Shown here one piece after another: positions 992-28,730 of a stretch of 64,000 bases of DNA. The translations under genes were made by a program, and so were the position numbers. The number at the start of each line of letters is the position of its first letter. The stretch's first letter is position 1. The notes under the pieces were generated by a model. It made no database searches. It saw only the letters and a list, made by a program, of their open reading frames with translations, and had not been told where the DNA came from. Origin of the DNA: a virus; IMG/VR virus record IMGVR_UViG_3300002042_000001, positions 1 through 64,000 of that record; one strand, given 5' to 3'.

Positions 992-996
992 TTTTC

Positions 997-1082: not shown

Positions 1083-1137
1083 TTATCCACTTCAAATAGT
1101 TATCGAATCGTTTATAAGCATAGCTGACAATATCACT

Positions 1138-1554
1138 ATGAAAGAGAACGATATGAAAACATGGCAAGTAATCGGAGCAATCGCTCTAGTAGGTATCGGT
1201 GTACCAATCGGTTGTTCGGTAATGAACACCGCAACCACCGTTGCAACAGCGCCAGGAAAGGTTGTTCAAAAGACCTTTCAGGCGGACAACATCATCACAA
1301 ATTATGAATGGTACTACGACACTTACGCCGCTTATGAAGCGCGTTTGGGTCAGATTACCGATCATTCATCTTATCTCGAAGCTGAAGAAGATCGCATTGA
1401 AATTCAGCGGCTTCGGATTGAGTTGACCGCGATGCGACAATCTTGTCGTGATCTGGCAACAAAATACAACGCTAACTCGCAGAAGGTGAACAAATCCATC
1501 TTCAAGGGCGGCGCTGTACCTGAAACTATCGAAAAGGAAAAATGCAATGCGTAA
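1138..1554 (+). CDS. membrane/lipoprotein-like hypothetical protein
   Basis: ORF track 138 aa; N-terminal hydrophobic segment ending ...GVPIGC (lipobox-like). Confidence 0.6.
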   Translation: MKENDMKTWQVIGAIALVGIGVPIGCSVMNTATTVATAPGKVVQKTFQADNIITNYEWYYDTYAAYEARLGQITDHSSYLEAEEDRIEIQRLRIELTAMRQSCRDLATKYNANSQKVNKSIFKGGAVPETIEKEKCNA

Positions 1555-2020
1555 ACTATTTATCGGAATTGCTGCGATTGCAGCATTGGCTCTAACTGCA
1601 TGTGGACCTGATGAACCGCAGAAGGTAACTCAATCTCAAAAGGCTGCAAAGGCTGCTGAGTCAGTCACCTACAGCGAAAATGCAGAAATCGACAACATCA
1701 AGAACCGTCTGGAATTGACTTCAAATCCTGGCGCTCTTGGTTTTATTCTGCTGATGAACCAAGCCGGCCAACCAATCGCCTATTACGGCGTGAAGGGCAA
1801 GGTAACATCTTCGGGCAAGCGTCTGACCAAACCTTTCGAACGTGAATTCGAAGGTCGTCATGTGCCGGCGCCAAGCGATGAAGGCACATGGGGTTCAAGC
1901 GACCCGTACGTGTACTTCTGGACTACCAGCGGTCAATACATTCAATGGAATGGCGACTACCTGTACAGCGACAAGCCGTTCAGAACACGCGTAGAGCCTT
2001 TGGTGATCGCAACGAAATAA
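1547..2020 (+). CDS. lipoprotein (signal peptide + lipobox LTAC)
   Basis: ORF track 157 aa, MRKLFIGIAAIAALALTAC...; 8-nt overlap with upstream ORF. Confidence 0.7.
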   Translation: MRKLFIGIAAIAALALTACGPDEPQKVTQSQKAAKAAESVTYSENAEIDNIKNRLELTSNPGALGFILLMNQAGQPIAYYGVKGKVTSSGKRLTKPFEREFEGRHVPAPSDEGTWGSSDPYVYFWTTSGQYIQWNGDYLYSDKPFRTRVEPLVIATK

Positions 2021-2025
2021 GGTTT

Positions 2026-2102
2026 GTTGGCGGTAGCTCAGTTGGTAGAGCGCTAGTTTGTGGTACTAGAGGTCGCGGGTTCGAACCCCGTCCGTCACCC
2101 CC
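2026..2102 (+). tRNA. tRNA-His(GUG) with encoded G-1
   Basis: anticodon arm ctagt/ttGTGgt/actag, T-arm gcggg-ttcgaac-cccgt, extra 5' G able to pair with C73; 3' end ...cacccca (exact end +/-1). Confidence 0.8.
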
Positions 2103-2110
2103 ATATTGAG

Positions 2111-2166
2111 ATAGAACCCACCATACGGTAAAACGTATACGTGGGTTCTATACGTTTTACCGTATG
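2111..2166. repeat. two interleaved perfect inverted repeats (A-B-A'-B')
   Basis: A 2111-2121 atagaacccac pairs with A' 2141-2151; B 2122-2139 catacggtaaaacgtata pairs with B' 2149-2166. Confidence 0.9.
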
Positions 2167-2228
2167 CGCTTGACAGTTACGATCACAAGCGCTACTTAAT
2201 AAGTCGTAATAAGAGGTAATAACTGCTA

Positions 2229-2564
2229 ATGAGTAGAACAGAGAACCATTTTGGAATCATCACTGAAATATGTGACACGGTAACTGGCTTCGAGGCTAAG
2301 TATACGCTAGCGCAGAGTGAGCATAGTCTTGTTCCTGCCGACGATGACAGTGCGTCATACATCGACGACCCTGAATTCCAGTACGTCGCTTCCATTGACA
2401 TGATGTTCAAGATCGAGACAGAAGAGAACGAGTATGGGCACACTAAGATGTTGCCACTCGCGCCTCAAAAGTGGGCGTTCACTGCATCATTCTATAATGG
2501 TGGCGGTAGCTTGTCAGAAGTGTTGGATGATATGCTTGAAGAAGCGCTTGGGGAAACAGAATGA
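2229..2564 (+). CDS. hypothetical acidic protein
   Basis: ORF track 111 aa; AAGAGG before ATG; ATGA overlap with thyA start. Confidence 0.6.
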   Translation: MSRTENHFGIITEICDTVTGFEAKYTLAQSEHSLVPADDDSASYIDDPEFQYVASIDMMFKIETEENEYGHTKMLPLAPQKWAFTASFYNGGGSLSEVLDDMLEEALGETE

Positions 2565-3441
2565 CAACCACCGAATCAGAACAAACGTTCCTAAGATTGC
2601 TCGCGAACGTTCAAGCGAACGGTAATGACCGTGGCGACCGCACTGGTACTGGTACGCGCAGCATCTTTGGTATGCAATCGCGTTACGACCTGTCACAAGG
2701 TTTCCCACTACTGACAAACAAACGCGTACCGTTCAAGTCGGTAATTAGTGAGCTACTTTGGTTTATCGAAGGTAGCGGTGACGAACGGCGTCTCGCTGAA
2801 ATATTATACGGCAAAGATCGTCAAGAATTGACCGACAAGACAACCATTTGGACCGCGAACGCACACGCCGATTATTGGGTGAACCGTGGTTACAAACAAC
2901 AAGAGGGCGACCTTGGTTATGTATATGGTGCGCAGTGGCGAAACCAAGTTAACGCTGAAACAGGCGAAAGTTACGACCAGCTACAAATATTGATCGAGGG
3001 TATTAAGCGCGACCCTGAAGGGCGCCGGCATATTCTCAGCGCTTGGAATGCACCTGAGATAGATATGATGGCGCTACCACCGTGTCACGTCATGTCGCAA
3101 TACTATGTGCGTGATGGCTATCTCGATTGCCAGATGTATCAGCGCTCGAACGACCTATTCTTAGGCTCACCGTTCAATCTCGCAAGCTACTCGGCGCTAA
3201 CTATGATGATCGCACAGGTATGCGACCTGAAGCCAGGAGAATTCATCTATACGATGGTGACGCACATATCTATCAGAATCACATGAAGCAGGTCAATGAG
3301 CTTTTGAAACGCGCACCGCGACCAGCACCGATCTTGAGGCTGAACAAGTCCGTAAAAGAAATTACAGACTTCACCATGGATGACTTCGATCTTATCGGTT
3401 ACGACCCACACCCTGCAATCAAAGCGGATATGGCAGTATGA
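2561..3441 (+). CDS. thyA: thymidylate synthase ThyA, reading frame broken by a 1-nt frameshift near 3253-3257
   Basis: ORF 2561-3286 carries DRTGTGT, ALPPCH, QRSND.FLG.PFN.ASY; ORF 3127-3441 (other frame) carries GDAHIYQNH...YDPHP; junction acgatGGtgac. Confidence 0.85.
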
Positions 3442-13977: not shown

Positions 13978-14688
13978 ATGCGATATGTAAGGTTAGTGGC
14001 AGTCGAAGATGAATACGACAACACACCAGGATTGGCGATTAAAGGTTGTCGCACTGACTATGAAGGTTTCATGGCAGCGCGAGACGGTAACCTGATCGCA
14101 CATGACTTGATTGAACATCAGAACGGGCTTGAAAACATGGGTCCGGTATGGGATGAACTGCAAGCTCTCGGTGGTATATGGCACACACGCGGTCGTTGGG
14201 GTCAAATGCTTACCAAATACGGTTCGCACTTCACACCTGACTACCACATTGGCGCAAGCATTCAACAGATGCACGGCGACCACATGCTGAACGGTTATCA
14301 CCACTTTCACGATTGGGATTTACTCGGCCCCAAGCTCAACACATACGAACATTTGTACGACGAGGATTTCTTATTGTGTATCGAGCAAGCCAGAGGTTTA
14401 ATTGAAGGCGAACGCAAGTCACATTGCGAATGTCCAGACGATCACGAATATTACACCGCAGCACGTGACGCTATCTTGGCGGCGTCATTGCACCACCTAC
14501 GTACTGGCTTTCGCAAAGCAGAGCGACGCTTCGGTGGGTATGACTTCAAATCCCACGACACGTACCGACGCATTCAAGATGCTGTTAATGGTGTTGTGAA
14601 GATGGTCGATTTCGAAGGGCAAGAGTTTCTGCTAGGTTACAGCAGCTACGAAGCCACAATCAGCGAAGTATACGAAGAGGAATATTGA
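13978..14688 (+). CDS. hypothetical protein (236 aa)
   Basis: ATG 13978 at conserved leader spacing; ORF 13942-14688. Confidence 0.65.
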   Translation: MRYVRLVAVEDEYDNTPGLAIKGCRTDYEGFMAARDGNLIAHDLIEHQNGLENMGPVWDELQALGGIWHTRGRWGQMLTKYGSHFTPDYHIGASIQQMHGDHMLNGYHHFHDWDLLGPKLNTYEHLYDEDFLLCIEQARGLIEGERKSHCECPDDHEYYTAARDAILAASLHHLRTGFRKAERRFGGYDFKSHDTYRRIQDAVNGVVKMVDFEGQEFLLGYSSYEATISEVYEEEY

Positions 14689-14689
14689 T

Positions 14690-14965
14690 ATGCTCCACCC
14701 GATGAACCTAGACAACTCACAACCGCACAAAGATGGCGGTCGAGTATGGCCCTTCACACGCGCTGGTGGCTCACAGTTGGTCACCGTGCGACAGCTACCC
14801 AAACCAGTCGCCGGCATTCGGTACACCATACGCGTAACCAACCGCAGCGGTGAAAAGATCGAGAGTTGGGCTTACAAAACAATGACAGGCGCTAAGAAGC
14901 GTGTGATGTTAGAAATGCCAAAAATGGCAATGGCTTATGAGCAATCCCAATTGCAATCTCGTTAG
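14690..14965 (+). CDS. hypothetical protein
   Basis: ORF track 91 aa; contains 22-nt repeat 14708-14729. Confidence 0.5.
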   Translation: MLHPMNLDNSQPHKDGGRVWPFTRAGGSQLVTVRQLPKPVAGIRYTIRVTNRSGEKIESWAYKTMTGAKKRVMLEMPKMAMAYEQSQLQSR

Positions 14966-15002
14966 AAACTAGCTATGTTATTTCTAACAGAAAAGGAATA
15001 GC

Positions 15003-15545
15003 ATGACAGAGTTTGTAGGACACATTCGCGATGGTGGTTTGTTACCGCTAGCGCAAGATTTCGCCGCAGCAGTGATGTTAGCGGGTGACCAGAACGAAAC
15101 CATCCACCGCGAAGGTGAAGATGAAACTTATCTCAAACGTTGGTTTGTGGCTCGCAAGAACATGATACCAACAGTGATCGGTGAACGTATCAGCAAAGAA
15201 GAATCACGCGCAGTAGCGGGCTTCGTGCCAAGCATGGTAGAAAACGTTTACGTGCACAAATTCGGTGCAGGTGACGCGAACGAAACCTTGCACGATCATC
15301 CGTGGTGGAACGTGTCGCTGATAGTCTCCGGTGGGTACACCGAGCAACTGGATGACCGACTGGTCGAGCGCAACCCAGGCGATGTAATTATTCGACAAGC
15401 GGCTGATCGACATGCGATACGGCTAGTCAAACCTGACACCGTAACGATCTTTGGTACGGGCATCAAAGAGCGCGAGTGGGGTTTTTGGGTCGATGGCGAA
15501 TTCGTACATTGGCGTGACTTTCACAATCATACGAGGGAAATATAA
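15003..15545 (+). CDS. hypothetical protein (His-rich, possibly cupin-like)
   Basis: ORF track 180 aa; HDHPWWN ... H. Confidence 0.6.
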   Translation: MTEFVGHIRDGGLLPLAQDFAAAVMLAGDQNETIHREGEDETYLKRWFVARKNMIPTVIGERISKEESRAVAGFVPSMVENVYVHKFGAGDANETLHDHPWWNVSLIVSGGYTEQLDDRLVERNPGDVIIRQAADRHAIRLVKPDTVTIFGTGIKEREWGFWVDGEFVHWRDFHNHTREI

Positions 15546-15727
15546 TGGCCGAAGAAGGTAAATTTGCAGAACGTATGAAGATGCAGCAGCTTGAAATGCA
15601 AGTCGAGCAGGCAGAGCAAAACATGTCCATGTTGAAGAATGTGTTTCGAGAATTATTGATTGATCTTGATGATGAAAATTGGGATAGCATTATCGAAACA
15701 ATTGAGGGTTTTAGAGGTAAGGTATGA
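15545..15727 (+). CDS. small coiled-coil protein
   Basis: ORF track 60 aa. Confidence 0.55.
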   Translation: MAEEGKFAERMKMQQLEMQVEQAEQNMSMLKNVFRELLIDLDDENWDSIIETIEGFRGKV

Positions 15728-15948
15728 GACGCAAGCTAGAAGATGATGGCTTAATTCATATCGACCTTACCGGACCTGCGGGTAACGCGTATTCTCTCAT
15801 GGGTACGGCAGAGCAGATCGCTAAGTCAGAAGGTTGGGATGAACAGTAGATCGAAGCGCTGGTGGAAAACATGAAGTCAGGCGACTATGAACACCTAGTC
15901 TCGGTGTTGGATGATACGTTTGGGGAGTTGGTGGTTTTATATGAGTAA
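15724..15948 (+). pseudogene. 73-codon gene interrupted by in-frame TAG at 15847-15849
   Basis: ATGA-coupled start; 41 codons, TAG, 32 further sense codons; end overlaps next start. Confidence 0.5.
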
Positions 15949-16255
15949 ATTCACAGCAGAGTATCGCGTGGACAATCGCACTTTCAGTCTCGACATTGAA
16001 GCTGAAGGGTGGCAAGAAGCTGAATTCAAACTTGAAGCGTTGCGTGACAATGGCTACTTCGTAGAGAAAGACGTGATCGAGTATCAGTTGGACTCGTTCG
16101 TCTATCGAGCGCGTTGCAGGCATTTCGAGACCGAAGAAGAAGCACGCCGGCACTTGGCTATAATCAAGTTTCATTCACGCATAACGGGTGAAGTAGTGTT
16201 TCGCACGAAAGTGCCCAACTTCTTTGCTGGTCTGATATCAAAACGGATAGACTAA
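15941..16255 (+). CDS. hypothetical protein
   Basis: ATG 15941 within ORF 15911-16255. Confidence 0.6.
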   Translation: MSKFTAEYRVDNRTFSLDIEAEGWQEAEFKLEALRDNGYFVEKDVIEYQLDSFVYRARCRHFETEEEARRHLAIIKFHSRITGEVVFRTKVPNFFAGLISKRID

Positions 16256-16260
16256 CCCAC

Positions 16261-16288
16261 TATGCGAATCGTCGTAACGTGCTATTGA
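16261..16288 (+). promoter_or_regulatory. class I promoter TATGCG-16-TATTGA after AACCCAC
   Basis: element starts right after TAA 16253-16255; leader ACGAAAGGTAAACGAAATG. Confidence 0.5.
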
Positions 16289-16318
16289 TGGTGCACAAGC
16301 TAACGAAAGGTAAACGAA

Positions 16319-16597
16319 ATGCTTTTAGACACTATCACAGATCAAGAGACGCGCTTCACCATTGCAGACTTTGGTGATGGCGAAATCGGAATTATCGACA
16401 CCGATGATGCGCTGGAAAGCACAGACGTACCGTGGACGATTGAAATGTGGCAAGATCACGCTCACAACGGATGCGGAGCTAGCAACTGGCAACTTGATGC
16501 GCACAATCGCACACTCGACTTGGAATTCTGTAGCTCACGATCAATGACGACCGAAGAGTGGGATGACTTTCAAGATCACTTGGAAGAAATCGCATGA
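16319..16597 (+). CDS. acidic hypothetical protein
   Basis: ORF track 92 aa. Confidence 0.6.
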   Translation: MLLDTITDQETRFTIADFGDGEIGIIDTDDALESTDVPWTIEMWQDHAHNGCGASNWQLDAHNRTLDLEFCSSRSMTTEEWDDFQDHLEEIA

Positions 16598-17187
16598 ACA
16601 TTGACGAAATACGCCGCAGCAGTTACCGAAACTTTCACACGCGAGGGCTCGACTACGTTTGCCTAAGTCGTGGTGACAGTCTGACTGTGAAGGCGTATTT
16701 CATTCATGGTGACGTGACAGACGCACCAGAGCTTGTAGTGCCACACAATCATCGGTACGACTTCACCACACAGGTGTTGGATGGGCAAGTAAGTAACCAG
16801 ACATTCGACATGACCAACGGCGATGGCGTGCAGCTATTCGACTACCGCACACCGCTCAATGGTGGCGATGGTTTTACGTGGGTTGATGAATGCGGTCTCG
16901 AAGTGGCAGATGATATCTGCTATCACAAGGGTGAAACCTATCACCAGCGAGCGCATGAAATCCACACGCTGAAATTGCACAGCAAAGATACGGTGCTTAT
17001 ATTGTACCAGTTTGAAGACGTGTTGGATTTAAGCGAACCGTCGCAGTCATTTAGGATTGGTGACGGTAAAGAGCTACCGAATATGGATGGGCTCTATGAT
17101 GAATTCTCTAACGATCAGATCATGCAGCGGCTTGCACGATTGCGTCACCTTGGCTTCGAAACGAGACTATTAGATGGTTATGCGTGA
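16594..17187 (+). CDS. hypothetical protein (His-rich, possibly cupin-like)
   Basis: ORF track 197 aa, ATGA coupling. Confidence 0.6.
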   Translation: MNIDEIRRSSYRNFHTRGLDYVCLSRGDSLTVKAYFIHGDVTDAPELVVPHNHRYDFTTQVLDGQVSNQTFDMTNGDGVQLFDYRTPLNGGDGFTWVDECGLEVADDICYHKGETYHQRAHEIHTLKLHSKDTVLILYQFEDVLDLSEPSQSFRIGDGKELPNMDGLYDEFSNDQIMQRLARLRHLGFETRLLDGYA

Positions 17188-17204
17188 CAGAGAAGTTATC
17201 GAAT

Positions 17205-17315
17205 ATGATGGGTACTTATGGTCACCATATCAAACCTTACCAGCTACGCAAGAGCATTGAGCTTGACGAGCTTCTTAAATCGCACGGAGACGAAGATAAT
17301 TGGGGATTGTACTAG
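17205..17315 (+). CDS. 36-aa protein ending ...GDEDNWGLY
   Basis: ATG 17205; shares the C-terminal W-G tail motif. Confidence 0.4.
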   Translation: MMGTYGHHIKPYQLRKSIELDELLKSHGDEDNWGLY

Positions 17316-17352
17316 CCACTGGTGGTAACCGTTAGCGTCTGCTAACACAATA

Positions 17353-17565
17353 ATGAAAGTGAAGAAACGAATGGAACAAGACGTAGAGCAAGAATTGTGC
17401 GACGAGTTGGCAGCGTGGTGCAAGAAGAACGGGCTACCTGAAAGCGACCTTGATCGCTTGATGACTAGCGAAGGGCTCACCGACGATCAATACGAATGGC
17501 TCACCAAATACTCGGTGCGCTGGAACGAAATGATCGACGAGCAATACGGTTTAATGCCAGCATAG
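17353..17565 (+). CDS. hypothetical protein
   Basis: ORF track 70 aa. Confidence 0.55.
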   Translation: MKVKKRMEQDVEQELCDELAAWCKKNGLPESDLDRLMTSEGLTDDQYEWLTKYSVRWNEMIDEQYGLMPA

Positions 17566-17574
17566 GAGATAACA

Positions 17575-17991
17575 ATGGCAACAGAAGCACAAATTCAAGC
17601 CTCAATCGAAAGATCGCAGGCTAAAAAGCAACCAAAGGCGGAATTCAGCAACGCTGACTTGCTCGCTGATAGCGGTCTTAGCATCGCGCACTTCCAACGG
17701 GAAGACACCCCGTTGCTGCGCGACATGACGGTGGCGTATGATTGTCAATACGACAATATCATCACCATGGCGACCGCAGTATGTCACCGCAAGGACACGT
17801 TCTGCAAGAAATTCGGTACGCGTACGGCTATCGAAAACTTCCAGGCTGGTGAAGTAATTCGCATGCCACGTGACCGTTCGGTTACCGCATACCAGCAGAT
17901 CGGTCTTATGGTAGGTGCAATGATGCGTTCGCCAGAAGGTATGATGGATGCTATCCGCAAGGATATCTTCGAAGGGCGGTTTGACCGATGA
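17575..17991 (+). CDS. hypothetical protein
   Basis: ORF track 138 aa; GGAG before ATG. Confidence 0.65.
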   Translation: MATEAQIQASIERSQAKKQPKAEFSNADLLADSGLSIAHFQREDTPLLRDMTVAYDCQYDNIITMATAVCHRKDTFCKKFGTRTAIENFQAGEVIRMPRDRSVTAYQQIGLMVGAMMRSPEGMMDAIRKDIFEGRFDR

Positions 17992-19280: not shown

Positions 19281-19573
19281 TGACAGAAAGTCTTCATAAA
19301 TTCTGCGACCGCTACGGCTTAGATATAGCGCAGTTTGATAAGTTGTTCGCCAACCTCAAGCTAAACAAACCATATCAGGTCGATTGGTTGATGCAGTTTC
19401 ACCACCCAACGGTGCAGCGGGCTCTCGAAGAAGATATTACGGCGTTGCGAATGATACGTGACGATTATCGTAGGGCTGATGCGCAAGGTGACTTCATCGC
19501 CGCGCACCAGAATTGGAAAGCTGAAGTTGAGGCTATGAAAGATGAAGAAAACCCTCTATGGGGTCTATTGTAG
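19280..19573 (+). CDS. hypothetical protein, C-terminal ...EENPLWGLL
   Basis: ORF track 97 aa. Confidence 0.6.
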   Translation: MTESLHKFCDRYGLDIAQFDKLFANLKLNKPYQVDWLMQFHHPTVQRALEEDITALRMIRDDYRRADAQGDFIAAHQNWKAEVEAMKDEENPLWGLL

Positions 19574-19582
19574 GAGAATGAC

Positions 19583-19681
19583 ATGGGTTGTTTAGGTATT
19601 ATTGTGGTAATAGCCATCGCGCTGACTGGCGATTGGTCATGGTGGTGGTTCCTGGCTTTTGCGTTAGCGCTGCTCGACTGA
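19583..19681 (+). CDS. 32-aa Trp-rich TM peptide
   Basis: AGGAG 6 nt before ATG 19583; same frame as upstream gene across its TAG. Confidence 0.45.
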   Translation: MGCLGIIVVIAIALTGDWSWWWFLAFALALLD

Positions 19682-19691
19682 TCGAACCCAC

Positions 19692-19720
19692 TTGCAGGCG
19701 CTACCTGATCGGTGCATAAG
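19692..19720 (+). promoter_or_regulatory. class I-like promoter TTGCAG-17-CATAAG after AACCCAC
   Basis: leader GCACGACAAACGAAAGATAAGATG downstream. Confidence 0.45.
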
Positions 19721-19745
19721 AATCGCACGACAAACGAAAGATAAG

Positions 19746-20006
19746 ATGATGAACGAGAATTTAAGAAACGGATTGATTACAGCATGCATAGTTGCATTGG
19801 CTTTTTGGTTCTTTTCAGATAAACCTGAACCAGAACCGCTACCACTCGGTGAGCCATACGTACCAGTTTACGCGGCGCCGGCACATGATTACAGCGCTGA
19901 GATACGCGCTAACAATCGCACGATGCAAGACATTTGCATTCAAACGGGCGCAGCGTGTGACGCAGCAGCGGTTACGCAAGGTCAGGTTGATCGGCTGGGA
20001 CAATGA
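19746..20006 (+). CDS. membrane-anchored hypothetical protein
   Basis: ATG 19746 at leader spacing; TM ITACIVALAFWFF. Confidence 0.6.
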   Translation: MMNENLRNGLITACIVALAFWFFSDKPEPEPLPLGEPYVPVYAAPAHDYSAEIRANNRTMQDICIQTGAACDAAAVTQGQVDRLGQ

Positions 20007-20254
20007 ACTTATCACAAGCAGCTATTGCAGCAATCGCAAACGACGATCTGGATGATGCAGTACGACCGATACAAGATTGCTTCGGCGTCGAGAGCGGTGA
20101 TACTGCGAGTGAATACTTTTCAAATCTTGAAGGTGATGACCCTAATTCAGTTTGGCGTAATTTAGAATATGATGAACGCCGCGCGCATATTATTGCTTAC
20201 ATCAAGCTTGAAGTGATATGGCTCGACACTGGTGAGACGTGCTATGAAAGCTAG
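20003..20254 (+). CDS. acidic hypothetical protein
   Basis: ORF track 83 aa, ATGA coupling. Confidence 0.6.
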   Translation: MNLSQAAIAAIANDDLDDAVRPIQDCFGVESGDTASEYFSNLEGDDPNSVWRNLEYDERRAHIIAYIKLEVIWLDTGETCYES

Positions 20255-20417
20255 TCGGTGGCAACGTAAGCAAAATCCAAAAATGGTTCGCGACCCAAGA
20301 AAAGATGTCGAAACCGTAGAGCAGCGCGAAGCGCGCATAAAAGTAAAATTGAAGCAAAAGCTGGCGCGAGAACGTGAAGAACAACGCGAAGAGCTTATAG
20401 AGGTGGCTTTATTTTAA
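20244..20417 (+). CDS. basic coiled-coil protein ending ...EVALF
   Basis: ORF 20232-20417; ATG 20244. Confidence 0.5.
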   Translation: MKASRWQRKQNPKMVRDPRKDVETVEQREARIKVKLKQKLAREREEQREELIEVALF

Positions 20418-20422
20418 CCCAC

Positions 20423-20450
20423 TTTGCGAATCGTTATTGTCTGTTATTGT
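20423..20450 (+). promoter_or_regulatory. class I promoter TTTGCG-16-TATTGT after AACCCAC
   Basis: element begins at stop codon; leader ACGAAAGGTAAGACAGTG. Confidence 0.5.
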
Positions 20451-20480
20451 GCTTACATCGACAAAACGAAAGGTAAGACA

Positions 20481-20825
20481 GTGACCGTGGAATATAAAAC
20501 TAGAGTCGAGCAGAACGGCATCGCTTTGCAGGTCGCAAAGATAGCATCCAATACTTATATCAAAATTGTTCGCCTAAGTGATAGTGTTGTTATACGGTCA
20601 TTTAATGATGGGCCGTATATCGGCAAACTACGCCCGCTTTATCAGCTATTCAAAGATAGGTGCACCATGTCACTAGAGGGCAGCATTCTAAATATGAGCA
20701 AAGAACAAAAAATCTGCGCACAATCCATCGCTAATATCGTGCACCGCAATGAATATACGGACTATGTATTGAATAACAGTGGAGCTATCTTCTACCCTAT
20801 GGGTGGTGGATTGAGAAGAGTGTAA
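20481..20825 (+). CDS. hypothetical protein (GTG start at leader position)
   Basis: ORF 20424-20825 trimmed to GTG 20481. Confidence 0.55.
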   Translation: MTVEYKTRVEQNGIALQVAKIASNTYIKIVRLSDSVVIRSFNDGPYIGKLRPLYQLFKDRCTMSLEGSILNMSKEQKICAQSIANIVHRNEYTDYVLNNSGAIFYPMGGGLRRV

Positions 20826-20827
20826 CT

Positions 20828-20992
20828 ATGGTTTGGATTTATCGCAAGAATGATAACTATGAGCTTGCTTGGCACAAAGGCGAGCAAGAGTGGGTTGATG
20901 CTACGTGGGATTTCCCCACTACCTACAATGATGTAACACAACCGTGCGCAGATGTACCTGACGGCGGAGAATGGGTGGAAATACCAGAATGA
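20828..20992 (+). CDS. 54-aa hypothetical protein
   Basis: ATG 20828; TGA overlaps next ATG (ATGA). Confidence 0.45.
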   Translation: MVWIYRKNDNYELAWHKGEQEWVDATWDFPTTYNDVTQPCADVPDGGEWVEIPE

Positions 20993-21363
20993 AAAAGATA
21001 TTCAACATTGATCGAGCCGCAGTCGAAAAGATGATCGCCTGGGCTGAAAAGCAAAGCGATGATATACCGCGTGAGGGTTGCTCATATTCCGCACCGTGCG
21101 TGGTTGGTTCGGCGTTTCCGCCAGCGGTGATCGATCACGTAACTTCCACCTACACCGACGGCGGGAAAGAGGCAGTTGGTGAAGATTCCTGTCTATTGGA
21201 TAACTTTTGCATTGGTAATCTCATTGGGAATAGGTACGCCAATATATCAATCGACGACGACGTGCAGTTGGGTTACCTACAGCGCGCACAGGGTTATTTT
21301 GATGGTGGTAATTCAATGAGTGAAGTTATCGATAATCTGAGAAAAGCAATTGGAACACTGTAA
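20989..21363 (+). CDS. hypothetical protein
   Basis: ATG 20989 within ORF 20971-21363. Confidence 0.6.
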   Translation: MKKIFNIDRAAVEKMIAWAEKQSDDIPREGCSYSAPCVVGSAFPPAVIDHVTSTYTDGGKEAVGEDSCLLDNFCIGNLIGNRYANISIDDDVQLGYLQRAQGYFDGGNSMSEVIDNLRKAIGTL

Positions 21364-21366
21364 GTT

Positions 21367-21504
21367 GTGAACGCACAAGGTGCAAATGCAGCGCGTGTGA
21401 AATGGTTAGAAGTACGCGTTTCGGAACTACAAAAAGAGGTTAGAGACCTCAAAGAGCGTTTAGCGTATGCAGAAGGTGTAGAATTTGAATCAATGGTTGG
21501 TTAA
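21367..21504 (+). CDS. 45-aa coiled-coil peptide (GTG start)
   Basis: open frame GTG 21367 to TAA 21502-21504. Confidence 0.3.
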   Translation: MNAQGANAARVKWLEVRVSELQKEVRDLKERLAYAEGVEFESMVG

Positions 21505-21546
21505 TTAGTCTATTGTGTTGCGCGTTCATTCGTGTATTGTGTCTTT

Positions 21547-21777
21547 ATGACCAAAAAGAAAATTAAGGTAGGCGATAGCGTCAAGGTTAAATATGAGGGT
21601 AAACTTGTATACGGCTCGATAACCAATGTGGATAATTTCTCTGAAAAGACGTTGTACGAGGTAACAATGGAAGGTGGTGTAAAGGAATATGCATATTACT
21701 GGGAAGAAGAATTCCTAGATCATTTCGAAGAAGTGCAGATATTTGTGAACCCAGACAAGAATGAGGCTTTATTCTAA
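21547..21777 (+). CDS. hypothetical protein ending ...NEALF
   Basis: ATG 21547 in ORF 21532-21777. Confidence 0.55.
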   Translation: MTKKKIKVGDSVKVKYEGKLVYGSITNVDNFSEKTLYEVTMEGGVKEYAYYWEEEFLDHFEEVQIFVNPDKNEALF

Positions 21778-21782
21778 CCCAC

Positions 21783-21811
21783 TTCACAAATCAGGAGCAA
21801 CGCGGTAAAAG
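21783..21811 (+). promoter_or_regulatory. class I promoter TTCACA-17-TAAAAG after AACCCAC
   Basis: leader TGAAAGGTAAGAACA followed by ATA. Confidence 0.45.
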
Positions 21812-21845
21812 GTGAGCGTTAAGACAAATATGAAAGGTAAGAACA

Positions 21846-22220
21846 ATAGGTACAAGATCACTAATATGCTTGGTTGAAGACGCAAGCATCAAAGGAATTT
21901 ACTGTCACTAGGATGGATATCCTGACCATAATGGCGCAATTCTCAAAGAACACTACCAGAATGAAGAAAAAGTCCGAGAGCTTATTGCGCTTGGTGGTAT
22001 CTCTTCGCTCGGACCTAACATTGGTATTAAGCACGATTTTAACAATAGCAACGAAGAGCCGTTCAAAGATATGGTAACGGCTTATGGCAGAGATAGAGGT
22101 GGCGGTGTCAATATAAGCTCTTTTTCAACCAAAAAGCAAGCCCGACAGTTTGCCGCCGAAATGTGGTGCGAGTATATCTATTTTTATAAAGATGGTAAGT
22201 GGACACATAGCAGGGTGTAA
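21846..22220 (+). pseudogene. 124-codon gene with ATA at the leader start position and in-frame TAG at 21909-21911
   Basis: IGTRSLICLVEDASIKGIYCH-TAG-DGYPDHNGAILKEHY...; single open frame to TAA 22218-22220. Confidence 0.55.
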
Positions 22221-22228
22221 TTACCATC

Positions 22229-22257
22229 TTTACGAATCGCATAATTTCCTGCATTAA
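22229..22257 (+). promoter_or_regulatory. class I-like promoter TTTACG-17-CATTAA
   Basis: leader GCACGACAAAAACGAAAGGTAAGAACAATG. Confidence 0.4.
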
Positions 22258-22288
22258 GGTTGCACGACAAAAACGAAAGGTAAGAACA

Positions 22289-22498
22289 ATGGCAGTATTC
22301 ACACTAGATAGCGACCAACGCAGGTTACTGGCGGATTGCATATCTATAGGGTATGAAGGTGCATTAGTAGAAGATGACTTAGCCCAAAACGATGATACCA
22401 TTGCAAGCATGATGGATGAACTTGAAGCGTCAAACCGTACAATCGAAATCACTATAATGCCGGTGGGTGCAGTCAACTTACATGATCGGGTAGAATGA
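22289..22498 (+). CDS. hypothetical protein
   Basis: ORF track 69 aa, conserved leader. Confidence 0.6.
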   Translation: MAVFTLDSDQRRLLADCISIGYEGALVEDDLAQNDDTIASMMDELEASNRTIEITIMPVGAVNLHDRVE

Positions 22499-22695
22499 TG
22501 GACCTTCTAGCTATACCGCTAACCAGACCATGTGGGTTTCTCACTGACAGGCAGGATGAGGCACTACAGGCTGCGGCTAAACCGTATGCAGTAGACAAAG
22601 ATGCTTCATGGGGTGAAATTGCAACCGAAGCAGAAGATGACGGTGAGTATCGATTGGCTGATCTGATACGTAGCTGGTACACGTGGGGTTGCTGA
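22495..22695 (+). CDS. hypothetical protein
   Basis: ORF track 66 aa, ATGA coupling. Confidence 0.55.
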   Translation: MMDLLAIPLTRPCGFLTDRQDEALQAAAKPYAVDKDASWGEIATEAEDDGEYRLADLIRSWYTWGC

Positions 22696-22698
22696 ATA

Positions 22699-22851
22699 AT
22701 GTATAACAAAGAAATTGCAGAGCATATCAAAGATGCATGGGAAGAGGGTATTTGTGATGGGCTCGATATAGATGATGTCAGCGTGGTTGATTATCTATGG
22801 GAAGATAGTATTGCTAAAAAGATGTACGATCAGTTAATAAAGACAGGCTAA
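22699..22851 (+). CDS. 50-aa acidic hypothetical protein
   Basis: ATG 22699 to TAA 22849-22851. Confidence 0.4.
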   Translation: MYNKEIAEHIKDAWEEGICDGLDIDDVSVVDYLWEDSIAKKMYDQLIKTG

Positions 22852-23213
22852 TGGTATTCGTGTGATACCCTAAATGTTGGTGTAATTTCCCAACATGCTA
22901 AATAGTAGGATGGTGCGCTAATAGTTAGGCGGTCTATTTGCACACTTTCTTCGTGTCAATCAAGCAATCAATTTTCTCTTATACACGTGGGGTTTGTCGA
23001 AAAACGCCTATTTTCCTTCCACAAGAGGGAAGGAACCCATGGCTCACCCATGGGATGAGTCACATTGGCAGCGTAAACGCCATGGGTGTTATCAAACCTC
23101 GGACTATAGCCATCACATTCATAGGATTTGTATCACCCATAGTCCATCGAATGCAGGCGTTACACACGGTCCATGGGTTTCAGGCTCCCACGCTATACAT
23201 TCATCGAAGCCGC

Positions 23214-23242
23214 TAGACAACTCACAACCGCACAGCTATAAG
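23214..23242 (+). promoter_or_regulatory. sigma70 promoter TAGACA-17-TATAAG
   Basis: 5/6 matches in both hexamers, 17-nt spacer, about 43 nt upstream of ATG 23285. Confidence 0.6.
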
Positions 23243-23284
23243 CAATGCAACAGAGCGACAAACACGAACACAGGAAGAAAGATT

Positions 23285-23593
23285 ATGGACCTTTTCAAAT
23301 CAATTATGACCGCTGCTCACGAAAGCGATAGCATCTCTGCACTCAACATTGTTGCGGCGTCAATCGGTGTCGAAATCCCTGACGATGCAGTTGCCAAAGC
23401 AGAAGCAGAAAGCGACGACAACAATTGGGCCAATGCAAGCTATGAAGATCGCGTTGCCACCATGATGCGTTCAGCGGGTCTGATTGTCACCACCATCCTT
23501 CCAGTCACCTATTTGATGCAGAAGATGCAAGCAGCGGCGGATGACGATGCACCTGACGGTGATACACCATCGAGCGAAGTGGGTGTCAGCTAA
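23285..23593 (+). CDS. hypothetical protein (102 aa, C-terminal TM-like segment, acidic tail)
   Basis: AGGAAG before ATG 23285; downstream part of ORF 22994-23593. Confidence 0.6.
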   Translation: MDLFKSIMTAAHESDSISALNIVAASIGVEIPDDAVAKAEAESDDNNWANASYEDRVATMMRSAGLIVTTILPVTYLMQKMQAAADDDAPDGDTPSSEVGVS

Positions 23594-23646
23594 CACCAGT
23601 TTGTCGAGCGCCACCGTTTGATTACCTTTCTCGCGGGGGCAAGCGG

Positions 23647-23698
23647 GAAAACCCGCCACGAGAGCTACCAAGCATCGTCGGCGGGTTTTCTTCGTCTT
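23647..23698 (+). terminator. rho-independent terminator with competing upstream hairpin
   Basis: gaaaacccgcc (23647-57) / ggcgggttttc (23680-90) + ttttcttcgtctt; 23643-23656 gcggg-aaaa-cccgc shares the same strand. Confidence 0.55.
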
Positions 23699-23788
23699 AA
23701 TTCCAATTGCCCATGGGTCTGCGCTGTTTATGGCTGCGCCAACGCGCTTGCCCCTTGTGCCCTTGGAATTAACCCTCAGACCCATGGG
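23697..23788. repeat. interleaved inverted repeats X-Y-X'-Y'
   Basis: X ttaattccaa 23697-706 / X' 23763-772; Y cccatgggtctg 23710-721 / Y' 23777-788. Confidence 0.85.
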
Positions 23789-23797
23789 AAAGGAATT

Positions 23798-23820
23798 GGT
23801 ACGGCAGCAAAGACATATAT
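23798..23820 (+). promoter_or_regulatory. class II box GGTACGGCAGCAAAGACATATAT
   Basis: copy of the GGTACGGCAGC..CATATA element. Confidence 0.45.
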
Positions 23821-23929
23821 GAGTTGGGAGCGGCTTGCCCTGTTTCGCAAATCGATATCCGCGTTGCATTGTCCATGGGCTCTTGCTGTGTTTCCCACAG
23901 GGTGGGAAACTTGCATCAATCGAACCCAC

Positions 23930-23957
23930 TTCACGAATCACTCCGAATGTTTATTGT
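23930..23957 (+). promoter_or_regulatory. class I promoter TTCACG-16-TATTGT after AACCCAC
   Basis: leader ACGAAAGGTAAGACAATG downstream. Confidence 0.5.
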
Positions 23958-23987
23958 GGTATGCAGACAACGACGAAAGGTAAGACA

Positions 23988-24125
23988 ATGTAGGAATTAT
24001 TATTAACAACCGACTGCGAAAATGAACAAGATATCGCAGAAGAGCTTGAAATAATCGCCGATATGGTACGCGATGGGTTGACCAGTGGTGAAACGCCGAA
24101 CGGTAACTGGTGGAGTTTAAAATGA
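23988..24125 (+). pseudogene. 45-codon gene with TAG as codon 2 (23991-23993)
   Basis: ATG at conserved leader position, then TAG, then 43 sense codons ending in ATGA overlap with 24122. Confidence 0.4.
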
Positions 24126-24433
24126 AACTATTACACAAGGTTCTAGCGGTTGCATGTGCACTAGGTGTTATCGGTGCGACTGCTTACGGTTCACTGCAAG
24201 CACACAAAGAGTTGCAAGCAGCAGACGATCACGTGGTCATGTACGTATACAGCGAAGACGACGCGTGGAACGAGTGGTACGCGAACATCGAGTCACAAGA
24301 ATTGACCGAAGCACCGATCTGCTTATATGAAGGTGCAGCACACCAGCCCACCAACGAATTCGGCATGCGCTATATGATCGCCGAGTGTGAGGTTCCAGCG
24401 TTCTACCCTGAAATTACACAACTTGCCAATTAA
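24122..24433 (+). CDS. secreted protein (signal peptide)
   Basis: GGTGGAG 6 nt before ATG 24122; MKLLHKVLAVACALGVIGATAYG. Confidence 0.65.
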   Translation: MKLLHKVLAVACALGVIGATAYGSLQAHKELQAADDHVVMYVYSEDDAWNEWYANIESQELTEAPICLYEGAAHQPTNEFGMRYMIAECEVPAFYPEITQLAN

Positions 24434-24451
24434 TATAATCTTTGCTACAAT
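24423..24451 (+). promoter_or_regulatory. sigma70 promoter TTGCCA-17-TACAAT
   Basis: overlaps end of upstream gene; drives 24484 gene. Confidence 0.6.
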
Positions 24452-24483
24452 GCGCGAATTGTTAACAACCAAACACAAGGATT

Positions 24484-24732
24484 ATGATTATGGCTGTAGC
24501 TACTGAAGTATTGGGTGCGGTTGGCACCTACTCTGCTGTTTCCGTTACTGCGGACGGCGCGATTACAAAGGTTCAAACTGGTGGACCTGGCGGTGCTTAT
24601 GAATTTGTTGACTCTGCGGGTAACCCTGCCAAGGTTCAGTTGAATGGTCAGGAAGCGGCTTCCGTTTTCGCTACCATCGCTGAATCTGATGTTGACGCTA
24701 TTGCGACTGCATACGCCGCTGCTATTGCTTAA
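24484..24732 (+). CDS. A/G/V-rich 82-aa protein in a stand-alone promoter-gene-terminator unit
   Basis: ORF track; AAGGA before ATG (24484 or 24490). Confidence 0.65.
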   Translation: MIMAVATEVLGAVGTYSAVSVTADGAITKVQTGGPGGAYEFVDSAGNPAKVQLNGQEAASVFATIAESDVDAIATAYAAAIA

Positions 24733-24753
24733 TAGGCAATAACATTGAATTTG

Positions 24754-24781
24754 AAAAGGCTGCCTTCGGGTGGCCTTTTTT
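24754..24781 (+). terminator. rho-independent terminator
   Basis: aaaaggctgcc-ttcg-ggtggcctttt + tttttg. Confidence 0.75.
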
Positions 24782-24936
24782 GTGGCTGTAACACAGTCCA
24801 TGGGTGCTAGGCATCGCATAGTCCGGCAGTTTCAGGCATAATCTGTCTTGGCGCAACGTTGGGCTTGGGCTCATGTTGACCTGGTTCTACCTGGTAGCCA
24901 TTGAAAACGCTTGATTTTAACCCATATCGAAGCCAC

Positions 24937-24964
24937 TTGTAATAATGTCCTGCATCGTTATATC
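24937..24964 (+). promoter_or_regulatory. class I-like promoter TTGTAA-16-TATATC
   Basis: GCCACTTGTAA context; leader GCACGACAAACGAAAGGTAAGACCATG. Confidence 0.45.
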
Positions 24965-24993
24965 TGATTGCACGACAAACGAAAGGTAAGACC

Positions 24994-25341
24994 ATGACAC
25001 AGAACAGCGAAGCACACATTCGATCAGCACCGAAGCTGCACCTGACCGATACTGATATCGGCACGTTTCGAGCATCAATGACACCGCTTATGGCATTGCA
25101 GCTAGCACAGCACCTTGGAATGCGTCACGTCGATACTGCTAATCAAGGCGAGTGGTACGCAGAAGCATATCAAGATGCCCACGATGTGGTTGCGCCATTC
25201 AAGATGGTTCTATGCAACGATAAGCAAGGTTGGGTTGAGTGTCACGAAGAAGACATGGAATTCATCGCGAACGCTTGCACGAATGATGTATGGGCACAAA
25301 AGAACGCACCTGACAATCTGATTACCGCTTACGTGGTATGA
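24994..25341 (+). CDS. hypothetical protein
   Basis: ORF track 115 aa, conserved leader. Confidence 0.65.
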   Translation: MTQNSEAHIRSAPKLHLTDTDIGTFRASMTPLMALQLAQHLGMRHVDTANQGEWYAEAYQDAHDVVAPFKMVLCNDKQGWVECHEEDMEFIANACTNDVWAQKNAPDNLITAYVV

Positions 25342-25367
25342 TGCACCCTAGTTGAAAGGGTAACGTC

Positions 25368-25419
25368 GAACCCCGCTCGCACAGGCTGAAATGCCCAGGA
25401 GTGCTGCGGGGTTCCTTTT
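25368..25419 (+). terminator. rho-independent terminator
   Basis: gaaccccgc (25368-76) / gcggggttc (25406-14) + ctttt. Confidence 0.7.
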
Positions 25420-25440
25420 ATCGAACAGCTCCCATGGGTT

Positions 25441-25463
25441 GGTACGGCGGGCTTTTCATATAT
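25441..25463 (+). promoter_or_regulatory. class II box GGTACGGCGGGCTTTTCATATAT
   Basis: copy of the GGTACGGC..CATATA element. Confidence 0.45.
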
Positions 25464-25623
25464 GGACCACCCATGGCTTTTGCCTGTCTACCGGCACGCA
25501 TCCCACCGAAAGCGCGAATCGCTCCATGCGAATCACCCTAAATATATAGAACGGGCGCCTGCGCGTGGTCCAGATGGGTTATTAAGTCAAGCAATCTTTT
25601 CCGCTTTTTATTGCATTTTCTCC

Positions 25624-25652
25624 TTGCGCGAATCGAATCACTCTCCTAGTTA
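25624..25652 (+). promoter_or_regulatory. class I-like promoter TTGCGC-17-TAGTTA
   Basis: GCGAATCGAATC context; leader TTCGAAAGGTAAATACAATG. Confidence 0.35.
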
Positions 25653-25699
25653 CAAGTCATCGCAGCAATAACGCAGCGACAATTCGAAAGGTAAATACA

Positions 25700-26404
25700 A
25701 TGACTAAATCAGTAAAAACAGAAACCGCACCTGCTCAAATTCGCGCAGACGCACTACAGCTTAGCAATCAAAAAGTCGGTAACATGACTGCGCAGATCGT
25801 GAAAGCGTTCACCGCACGTGACAAATTCGAAGCTGCTAACGGTGTCGATATCACCGCAAATAACAGCTACACTCGCGAACGTGACCGCATGCTGCGTGAA
25901 AAGCAGTCTGTTGCACGGTTGTTTACAGTACTCGGTGTTACAGCAAGCAACGTGATTAACCGCAAGGTTAGCGCTAACGCAATGTTCAATGCAAAAGCGC
26001 TGAAAAAGGTCACCGAAATTGCATGCTTTGTGACTGGTAACGCACAAGATAAGCGCAACCTGTCACTTGAAAAGGTAACGCAAGCGTTCATCGCATGCGC
26101 TCTGATAGCGAGCGACAACAAAATGACGGTAATTCAAAACCCCGTTAACAAGCGCTTCTTATCAGCGACTAACCTTGATGCGTACATTGCAGATGAAACG
26201 CTGCGCAATTCGCTCGCTGATATGCGTCACAAAGCAATGACTGAAGGTCGTGACACGCAATCGTCACAAGCGCGCAACGTGCTTGACGTTCTCGGTCTAG
26301 GTACTATCAGCAGCGTTGACAAGCACCGCGACGCTATCACACTAGCGTCTGGTCATGCGTTCTTTGATCTGTTCAAAGGTCGCTATATGACTAAAGCAGC
26401 GTAA
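25700..26404 (+). CDS. hypothetical protein (234 aa)
   Basis: ORF track, conserved leader. Confidence 0.7.
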   Translation: MTKSVKTETAPAQIRADALQLSNQKVGNMTAQIVKAFTARDKFEAANGVDITANNSYTRERDRMLREKQSVARLFTVLGVTASNVINRKVSANAMFNAKALKKVTEIACFVTGNAQDKRNLSLEKVTQAFIACALIASDNKMTVIQNPVNKRFLSATNLDAYIADETLRNSLADMRHKAMTEGRDTQSSQARNVLDVLGLGTISSVDKHRDAITLASGHAFFDLFKGRYMTKAA

Positions 26405-26424
26405 CAGCAGCTTAGCGTAACGAT

Positions 26425-26470
26425 AAGAGCTAGCTAGGTGGTAGCACTGCTTAGCTAGCTCTTTCGTCTC
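26425..26470 (+). terminator. 12-bp hairpin terminator
   Basis: aagagctagcta / tagctagctctt + tcgtctct. Confidence 0.55.
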
Positions 26471-26510
26471 TGTAGCATAGCTTACAATCGATTTAAGAAG
26501 GTATTTCAAA

Positions 26511-26750
26511 ATGGTTCATGGTATAACGTTCGTTAATATATTCACTCTAGCAATGATCGTGCTTCTAATCGCACCTGAGTGCATACGACGCTATCAGCAT
26601 GCAATCGATAGCATGACAATCATCGGCGTTGCACCTGCATTCAAACCTAAGCGCGGTCACCTATTCTTGCGCGGTGTTACTGGTTTAATGGTTGCTGGTC
26701 TGGTTGCTTATGACTCGGTGATTTTGGTTGCATGGTTTGCGAATCACTAA
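26511..26750 (+). CDS. membrane protein (2 TM)
   Basis: ORF track 79 aa; last + strand gene before strand switch. Confidence 0.55.
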   Translation: MVHGITFVNIFTLAMIVLLIAPECIRRYQHAIDSMTIIGVAPAFKPKRGHLFLRGVTGLMVAGLVAYDSVILVAWFANH

Positions 26751-26901
26751 ATAGATAGCTCCGCAATGGTGAGTCGCATTGTCAATAGTGCGACTCGCAA
26801 CCCAAGAGAAGTCTTAGAAAAATTATTTATCTTGGACCCGGATGCCGCCTATTCGCCGGCACATATTTTAACCGACCCATCCACAGGCGGGGGGTATATG
26901 A

Positions 26902-27090
26902 CTAATCACTGCCATCCACAGGGGTATATACACCATCATCCACTTGTACGTGACCTAGCTCTACCAGTCTATCGAGTACGAGTTTGGTTTCCGATTGTGT
27001 CTTCCATATCCACCCTGGGAGATAGTTACGCCACGAACCGAATTGTCGCAGCATATCCAATACGTCTTGCTGTCTCGTACCGAGTTTCAT
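26902..27090 (-). CDS. hypothetical protein (possible winged-helix)
   Basis: ORF track 62 aa. Confidence 0.5.
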   Translation of the reverse strand: MKLGTRQQDVLDMLRQFGSWRNYLPGWIWKTQSETKLVLDRLVELGHVQVDDGVYTPVDGSD

Positions 27091-27341
27091 TCGATTATCT
27101 CAATCTCGTACTCAGTAATGATTGCTACCTTCGCACCGCACTTGATGACTGGTTTACCGTCTGTCGTCGATAAGATCGTTGCTACCGTGTTACCTTCTGC
27201 ATCTTTGATCGCGAGCTTGTGTGCGCGTTTCTGTACTTTGCCGCTTGGGGTGTTGGAGACGCGTATCGAAGGGTCGGGGTCAACCCAATTGCGTTTGTTG
27301 TTCGAACCAATGACGTTCTTGCATACGGATATATAGTTCAT
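27087..27341 (-). CDS. hypothetical protein
   Basis: TAATG-coupled ATG 27341 within ORF 27087-27365. Confidence 0.55.
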   Translation of the reverse strand: MNYISVCKNVIGSNNKRNWVDPDPSIRVSNTPSGKVQKRAHKLAIKDAEGNTVATILSTTDGKPVIKCGAKVAIITEYEIEIIE

Positions 27342-27586
27342 TACCGATTCCCTTCTACACACCATACCAATTGCATATTATCCAGCACCGCGTGATCTTT
27401 ATAAGTCGCGTACTGCCACCATTGATCGAGTGGACCTTCCAGATAGGTCTTCTTTTGAATGCGACGACGATAGCATTTCTGCATAAATATCGTGCGACCG
27501 TCATAAGTCTTTTGCGGCCAGAATACAAAAGACTTGTGCCAATAACCTATAGGATAGCCGAATATAGGGGTGTTTACTATGTTCAT
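27341..27586 (-). CDS. hypothetical protein (Trp/Tyr-rich)
   Basis: ORF track 81 aa. Confidence 0.6.
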   Translation of the reverse strand: MNIVNTPIFGYPIGYWHKSFVFWPQKTYDGRTIFMQKCYRRRIQKKTYLEGPLDQWWQYATYKDHAVLDNMQLVWCVEGNR

Positions 27587-28293
27587 GCCAATACTTCAAT
27601 GCGACCGCCTGTCATGCGTACCGTGTAGCCGTCATTCAATAGACGCATAGCCATATCGTCATCGTTCGATGAAGCTGGCGCTGGTACGAGTGCTGGTGGT
27701 TCCGGTAATGGCAATTCTTCGATGCTTTTCAAACCCAAATCAGGTAGAAGATCGTCGGTGGTTATTTTCATCAACTCCGAGATATCTTCTTGCGTCAATT
27801 GCTCTTCGCGTGGTTCGCCTTCCGCGTACAACCACTGTTCGGGGATTTTCTTAACGAAGACGTATATGCCGGCACGGTCGTCTGCGAATGTCAGGTCATC
27901 CCAAGAGATACATGTCTTGACCGCTTTGGCGGTTTCGCGCTCTCTGAAGCATTCTGGTTTCTTGACCGTGCAATACGATGCAACGGCGCCCGATGTTTCA
28001 CTGACTCTTTTGTTGCATTGACCGCTGTGCTTGCCTTCATCGGTTACGCGCAAAGTTACAACCAGACCTTGTGGGGTATATTCGTGACTGATGTAATGTT
28101 TCTGATCGACGATACCAAAAGCTTCAATACCGTCATCGGTGACAGTGTAGCTGATTGTTCCTTGACCAAATCTTCCGCGAGTGAATTTAAGCAGCGTTTT
28201 CATGTTTTCTTCCTTCAAGTTGAATTCTAGCTGACCTTTACCATTGTTTTTATTGAACTTAAAGAGTTTTTTGAATATATTCATGCCGATCAC
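27583..28293 (-). CDS. hypothetical protein (236 aa)
   Basis: ORF track; GTGA coupling (alt ATG 28284). Confidence 0.65.
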   Translation of the reverse strand: MIGMNIFKKLFKFNKNNGKGQLEFNLKEENMKTLLKFTRGRFGQGTISYTVTDDGIEAFGIVDQKHYISHEYTPQGLVVTLRVTDEGKHSGQCNKRVSETSGAVASYCTVKKPECFRERETAKAVKTCISWDDLTFADDRAGIYVFVKKIPEQWLYAEGEPREEQLTQEDISELMKITTDDLLPDLGLKSIEELPLPEPPALVPAPASSNDDDMAMRLLNDGYTVRMTGGRIEVLA

Positions 28294-28730
28294 TGTCGTT
28301 GAAGCATGTAAAATAGACCGACATTACACCAGTGGTATTTTTCAGGTTCGTCTAGCCGCATAAAGTCTTTCATTGTCAGACTAATTGGTTCGCCAGTATT
28401 TTCTGAAATAGCAACACGCTCCATATTCTCTAGCCATTTTAGGGAATTATCTCGATCTTCAGCAAGAAACTCAAATGGACACCCATCAAGTCTATCATAA
28501 TACCGATCACCGGACCATTCAATTATAGCATTACGGTAGAAGGCGAAGCGCTGTTTAGGAATTATACCTAACCGATACCATTTGCGCGTGGTGCTGCGTT
28601 TGGTTTCAGCTTCAACTAGCTTGGCCGCTTTGTCTTGCACTTTACCTTCATAATCTTGGTAAAGAGCTTCACGAGCATTACCAATCATTTGCAATAGGTT
28701 CTCCTTCGAGACTGGTACAAAACCTTTCAT
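28290..28730 (-). CDS. hypothetical protein
   Basis: ORF track 146 aa. Confidence 0.65.
   Translation of the reverse strand: MKGFVPVSKENLLQMIGNAREALYQDYEGKVQDKAAKLVEAETKRSTTRKWYRLGIIPKQRFAFYRNAIIEWSGDRYYDRLDGCPFEFLAEDRDNSLKWLENMERVAISENTGEPISLTMKDFMRLDEPEKYHWCNVGLFYMLQRQ

Follow-up and report, generated by a model that had tools for sequence, protein, structure and literature searches.

PHROG 1987 is a widespread family of uncharacterised phage proteins, with members in many large phages. By tblastn it is found in 151 phage records, including those of cyanophages, KVP40-like vibriophages and Caulobacter CcrColossus-type phages, where its members are annotated as intact hypothetical proteins, and a search of 5.8 billion proteins returned 565 homologues at E <= 1e-3. 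Three motifs mark the family: an invariant N-terminal M-G-T-R-S, a Y-C-H-W-D-G-Y and a G-R-D-R-G-E. Interrupted or unusually started genes are themselves familiar from several settings. Nonsense and start-loss mutations are the classical knock-outs of dispensable phage genes, among them escape mutants in which a phage gene sensed by a host defence system has been inactivated. The unusual start codon of infC is shared by its orthologues and has a regulatory role. Starts at AUA, AUC, AUU and CUG have been measured in bacteria at 1-2% of AUG, AUA initiation in E. coli being in this range (10.1101/063800), and stop-codon recoding, with TAG read as Gln, has been described in crAss-like, Lak and other gut phages (10.1101/2021.08.26.457843; PMC10879173).

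Here we describe a member of PHROG 1987 that has lost both its start codon and a near-invariant Trp codon. It lies in a 64,000-nucleotide stretch of DNA (hereafter the window) that is part of a 103,495-bp JGI/IMG contig and belongs to a novel, uncultivated, marine, T5-like phage, which is also present in JGI samples 3300002035, 3300002030 and 3300000217; its putative large terminase (45827-47086) shares no more than 57% identity with those of T5-like siphoviruses of Stenotrophomonas, Rhizobium and Klebsiella. Downstream of a tRNA cluster, many small early genes follow one another on the + strand, and the locus is one of them. A first-pass annotation, made without database searches, had noted an ATA at the usual start position behind a leader (21846-21848, + strand) and a frame of 124 codons (21846-22220, + strand) that is open except for a TAG at 21909-21911 (+ strand), all of which is read directly in the sequence. 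The TAG sits within ...GIYCH-stop-DGYPDHNG... and apart from it the frame remains open until the TAA at 22218-22220, with no frameshifts or further stops. In a profile search with the TAG masked, as that annotation had suggested, homologues span the TAG position: residues 1-120 match profile positions 1-113 (of 128) of PHROG 1987 with E = 1.4e-27, a full-length match. Known members include KVP40.0229 (Vibrio phage KVP40) and gp089c (Caulobacter phage CcrPW). The window copy shares with the family the G-T-R-S after position 1, the YCH-DGY and the GRDRG, a similar length and a predicted alpha/beta fold; it differs by an ATA for Met1, a TAG for Trp22 and a Gly for the Glu of GRDRGE, and the intact members are annotated as ordinary complete genes. 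The window copy is at most 53% identical, over its full length, to any homologue.

Residues were counted over 120 aligned homologues. All of them have Met at position 1, without a single non-Met start, and position 22 is Trp in 117, Ser in two, Phe in one and Tyr in none. Where the family begins with M-G-T-R-S, the window reads ATA GGT ACA AGA TCA (I-G-T-R-S). The DNA of the closest homologue reads ATG GGA ACT CGT TCG ... TGC CAT TGG GAC GGA TAC and, because it has ATG and TGG at the two altered positions, the ATA and the TAG would each derive from a single G-to-A transition. The motif that the first-pass annotation had given as YCH(W/Y)DGYP is confirmed with its Trp (117/120), Tyr being found in none (0/120); of the two origins it had proposed for the TAG, TGG agrees with the closest homologue and TAY finds no Tyr at position 22, while its single-step change from ATG to ATA accords with the universal Met1 and with the ATG of the closest homologue. 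All motif residues are kept except Met1, Trp22 and the Glu after GRDRG, this last being the only departure, beyond Met1 and Trp22, at the 41 columns with a conservation of 90% or more. Intact members deviate at 0.8 ± 1.1 of the same 41 columns.

The function of the product could not be read from known domains: no match was found in Pfam or NCBIfam, nor in the PDB by sequence or by fold. A confident AlphaFold2 model (pLDDT 84, pTM 0.81) gives a predicted fold that matches only uncharacterised viral (phage) proteins in BFVD. Among ~15 billion proteins, neither an intact allele nor a homologue with more than 53% identity over the full length was present, in a search that included 'repaired' alleles by exact sequence. 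A chimeric query made of neighbour proteins likewise gave no match. Relatives of the locus were also sought by megablast against phages, by protein and DNA-pattern scans of IMG/VR, and in metagenome contigs and genomes; among the matches listed for phages, IMG/VR, metagenome contigs, genomes and proteins, none falls between 53% and 99.9% identity.

The signals around the start of the gene are well preserved. The ATA directly follows a 14-nt leader, the Shine-Dalgarno-like element GAAAGGTAAGAACA (21832-21845, + strand), an identical copy of which (22275-22288) stands before the next gene, whose ATG is at 22289. Leaders of related sequence are found ahead of other starts as well, ten of them ATG and one GTG, matches with at most two mismatches numbering 8 against 0.35 expected by chance, and the ATA occupies the exact slot where the other leader-borne genes have their start codon. 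The GTG, at 20481, opens a leader-borne early gene behind ACGAAAGGTAAGACA. Non-ATG starts are thus tolerated behind the leader, but only canonical ones apart from the ATA case. In the gene map and in manual six-frame inspection of its larger gaps, by which smaller cases may escape, no further unexplained coding gap was seen. Upstream, the box ACCCACTTCAC (21777-21787, + strand) forms part of an early-gene module: it occurs exactly at 11888, 21777 and 23924 and as close variants at 12249, 16255 and 20417, every such box lying 63-74 nt upstream of a leader-borne start. These three exact copies and three variants make the 'class I promoter' of the first-pass annotation real as a repeated motif, and the box is a putative promoter. 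In most modules it is trailed by GAATC; the box at 21777 has AAATC instead, which may perhaps represent a further G-to-A change.

No other entry into the frame is apparent. Between the upstream in-frame TGA (21831) and the ATA (21846) there are only the codons AAG GTA AGA ACA, and reading of the frame gave no alternative start in this interval. A 15-codon upstream ORF (ATG at 21830) was considered as an alternative entry and rejected, being out of frame and devoid of a ribosome-binding site. The only canonical in-frame restart is Met71, which opens a residual 49-aa ORF (22071-22220, + strand), the sole piece callable by a gene caller and on record as a called product of the 103,495-bp source contig; such a fragment would lack the conserved N-terminal motifs. 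The locus shows two marks of a pseudogene, the ancestral Met1 being gone without a replacement start and a TAG standing where relatives have a sense codon for Trp. The GC content of the disrupted gene (42%) is low, yet like that of neighbouring genes, and was discarded as an indicator of AT-biased decay since it is uninformative.

In our opinion, the PHROG 1987 gene at 21846-22220 is probably a recently inactivated (pseudogenised) accessory gene. Its initiator ATG would have become ATA by one G-to-A transition and the TGG of its near-invariant Trp22 an amber TAG by a second, the promoter box and the ribosome-binding leader being left in place. The leader would still recruit ribosomes but AUA initiation would be only rare and, because the few chains that start would end after 21 residues, a functional product is presumably not made. 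The break appears recent because only one of the 41 conserved columns deviates besides Met1 and Trp22. Nonsense changes make up only ~3% (3.2%) of random substitutions in the coding sequence of this genome, so that a second disabling hit among the first few substitutions is uncommon, with a chance roughly estimated at ~15% under pure drift, which leaves room for selection for complete silencing. The retained promoter and leader, the double hit and the amber-only stops (see below) all count against plain decay. The loss may thus reflect either neutral drift in a dispensable gene or selection, for example against a product that is harmful in the current host.

Two other early genes of the window are interrupted by premature TAGs. 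One of them (15724-15948, + strand) is a member of PHROG 1933 with a TAG at 15847-15849, across which the profile match extends (E = 2.7e-13). The relative P0121 (L047/L048), which comes from another sample and is 95-96% identical, has CAG (Gln) at this codon, and the TAG allele recurs in contig L054. By this comparison of alleles (CAG versus TAG), the TAG at 15847 is a demonstrable nonsense mutation in a neighbouring gene. The other gene (23988-24125, + strand) has an exact box at 23924 and a leader at 23975, followed by ATG-TAG, the amber being codon 2 (23991-23993). Past the TAG it runs for 43 codons and meets the next gene in an ATGA overlap; weak homologues cover its residues 9-44, and the same ATG-TAG is found in contig L049. 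The premature TAGs of these two genes show that small accessory genes continue to decay by point mutation in the lineage. The scan for interrupted frames, which was non-exhaustive and addressed in-frame stops rather than frameshift-interrupted genes, revealed no premature TAA or TGA in the window. Given codon usage and the observed transition bias, three premature stops would all be TAG by chance with p = 0.07, an amber-only pattern that hints weakly at an amber-specific tolerance and is suggestive at most. Because the residues replaced differ (Trp at 21909, Gln at 15847), one suppressor could not restore both genes.

Three other explanations must be weighed against inactivation. The gene might be expressed at a low level or conditionally, by AUA initiation combined with read-through of UAG by a host or phage amber suppressor tRNA, in which case the same suppression would rescue the ambers at 15847 and 23991. 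Such expression would account for the retention of the promoter box and of a perfect leader, for an otherwise intact frame in which the other invariant residues are kept and for premature stops that are amber in three cases of three. A purine after the stop codon favours suppression, and all three TAGs have a purine next. It is also true that in E. coli AUA can serve as a start, at 1-2% of AUG (10.1101/063800), and that ~39 kb of the genome lies outside the tRNA search. However, multiplying this rate by a partial read-through leaves a negligible yield, and a non-Met start occurs in none of the 120 homologues. The tRNAs argue in the same direction. The phage cluster (1-2103, + strand) encodes a Pro fragment, Asn, Trp-CCA, Lys and His tRNAs, its 3.7-kb upstream extension, available from relative contigs, adds only Met(CAT) and Pro, and no tRNA with a CUA (suppressor) anticodon was found in the 64-kb window or in these 3.7 kb upstream in relatives, for a genome of 103.5 kb. 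A special initiator tRNA for AUA was considered and rejected: because it has a U1:A72 pair and no G-C run (GGG/CCC) in its anticodon stem, the phage CAT-anticodon tRNA is not an initiator but has elongator features. It could be a tRNA-Met, or a lysidine-modified tRNA-Ile2 reading AUA; in the relative strain, it maps to L051 2248-2324, ~1.4 kb upstream of the window start. Finally, TAG is an ordinary terminator in this phage. In a rough gene map of 130 genes, 54 end with TAA, 53 with TGA and 23 with TAG (21 TAG-ended genes among the better-scoring calls), and back-up stops are not enriched after TAG relative to TAA and TGA, the median distance being 10-11 codons for all three. With Trp needed in one gene and Gln in another in addition, we regard expression of the 21846 gene by this route as unlikely. 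The broader proposal, that UAG is partly suppressed during infection (by a host tRNA or one encoded in the remaining 39 kb) and that the three amber early genes are all made at a low level or conditionally, seems to us very unlikely; the AUA start would then further throttle the 21846 gene. If true, early accessory genes of a marine T5-like phage would be under a natural expression switch based on amber codons. Between the two readings offered by the first-pass annotation, recent inactivation of an accessory gene and expression through non-canonical initiation plus amber suppression, the normal use of TAG as a stop, the lack of a visible suppressor, the Trp/Gln mismatch and the low rate of AUA initiation in E. 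coli favour the former.

A reassigned code, in which TAG would specify an amino acid as it does in certain crAss-like and Lak phages, would explain the three in-frame TAGs within conserved frames, a feature that the window does share with recoded phages. Naive ORF-length statistics gave no information on this point, but the gene map and stop usage lead us to reject a global recoding: rather than being avoided as a terminator, TAG ends ~18% of the genes, among them the putative portal gene (47105-48724) and further late genes, and the in-frame TAGs found are only three, all in early accessory genes, whereas known recoded phages concentrate them in late genes (10.1101/2021.08.26.457843). Moreover, the implied residues are inconsistent (Trp at 21909, Gln at 15847), one site is an ordinary CAG in the 95% relative and thereby a demonstrable CAG-to-TAG mutation, and a suppressor tRNA was found neither in the window nor in the 3.7-kb upstream extension. 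Recoding is thus extremely improbable. The last alternative holds that the real phage has ATG and TGG and that the lesions stem from sequencing or assembly error, laboratory mutagenesis or hypermutation. In both cases a G within T-G-GG has become A, which might point to a systematic process, but the codons concerned, TGG and an ATG with GGN after it, largely dictate this context. An 8,998-bp contig, L049 (JGI sample 3300002035), matches window positions 19327-28320 at 99.89%, the differences over 9 kb being 4 SNPs and 2 indels, and has both the ATA and the TAG; since it was assembled independently, the lesions are not an error of one assembly. Nor is this a laboratory amber mutant, because every source is an environmental metagenome. 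Compared with the 95% relative, the window shows a symmetric spectrum of substitutions (T>C 27, A>G 26, G>A 24, C>T 20), and this, together with the environmental origin, rules out G-to-A hypermutation or mutagenesis. We therefore hold an artefactual origin to be highly improbable. L049 is of the same strain, so that it confirms the bases and does not supply an independent lineage; the sharing of ATA and TAG by related phages, which the first-pass annotation had named as an outcome that would speak against its proposal, was found in this 99.9% identical, same-strain contig only.

As with near-cognate initiation at the AUU of infC, the locus has a strong leader, correct spacing and then an AUN codon. 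Unlike in infC, however, the unusual start is not conserved among orthologues: all 120 homologues have Met, and a single strain is known to carry the ATA. The locus also resembles nonsense and start-loss knock-outs, single transitions having apparently created an amber and destroyed the start of a non-essential early gene with its regulatory signals intact, with the difference from laboratory knock-outs that the lesions here are fixed in environmental populations.

Most likely, then, this is an ordinary finding, a freshly dead gene of a widespread phage family, which nonetheless has annotation value: the locus should be described as a disrupted PHROG 1987 gene and not as the 49-aa or 54-aa 'hypothetical protein' of gene callers. 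It also indicates that small early accessory genes of an uncultivated lineage are being lost by point mutation and not by deletion: three ambers and a lost start are fixed in environmental populations, and one of the ambers can be dated to after the split from the 95% relative. If the loss was selected, it is tempting to speculate that PHROG 1987 proteins are candidates for phage products that are costly or sensed by a defence.

Several features of the surrounding genome may be mentioned. The same-strain contig L049 shows small length polymorphisms in translation-start regions: at 19577, immediately ahead of the start codon of gene 19583, it has one more ATGAC in tandem, and at 22276 it has one A fewer in the leader A-run of gene 22289. 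The relative strain, known from JGI BBAY60 samples, is mosaic, being 99.85% identical over the tRNA region (window 1-2690 versus L051) and only 95-96% identical at 14.5-17.7 kb (window 14512-17740 versus L047). Gene-sized indels also separate the two, the window gene at 15545-15727 being missing from L047, which in turn carries ~300 additional bases near window position 17240.

Unusually long non-coding stretches lie between early genes at 22852-23284, 23594-23923, 24733-24930 and 25342-25640. These four stretches hold 10 of the 18 CCATGG sites of the window and all four CCCATGGG palindromes, against 0.32 expected. They have no Rfam match and do not align with one another as a single element; operator sites, or a structured element that has yet to be described, are possible readings. 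Further downstream, in the region 45040-45160, GAAAGGTAAGAAAC at 45132 resembles a leader and is trailed by GCGGTTTTTT without a start codon. Ahead of it comes very AT-rich sequence that contains short repeats. The region, which lies immediately before the putative terminase-portal block (from 45252 on), may be regulatory or packaging-related.
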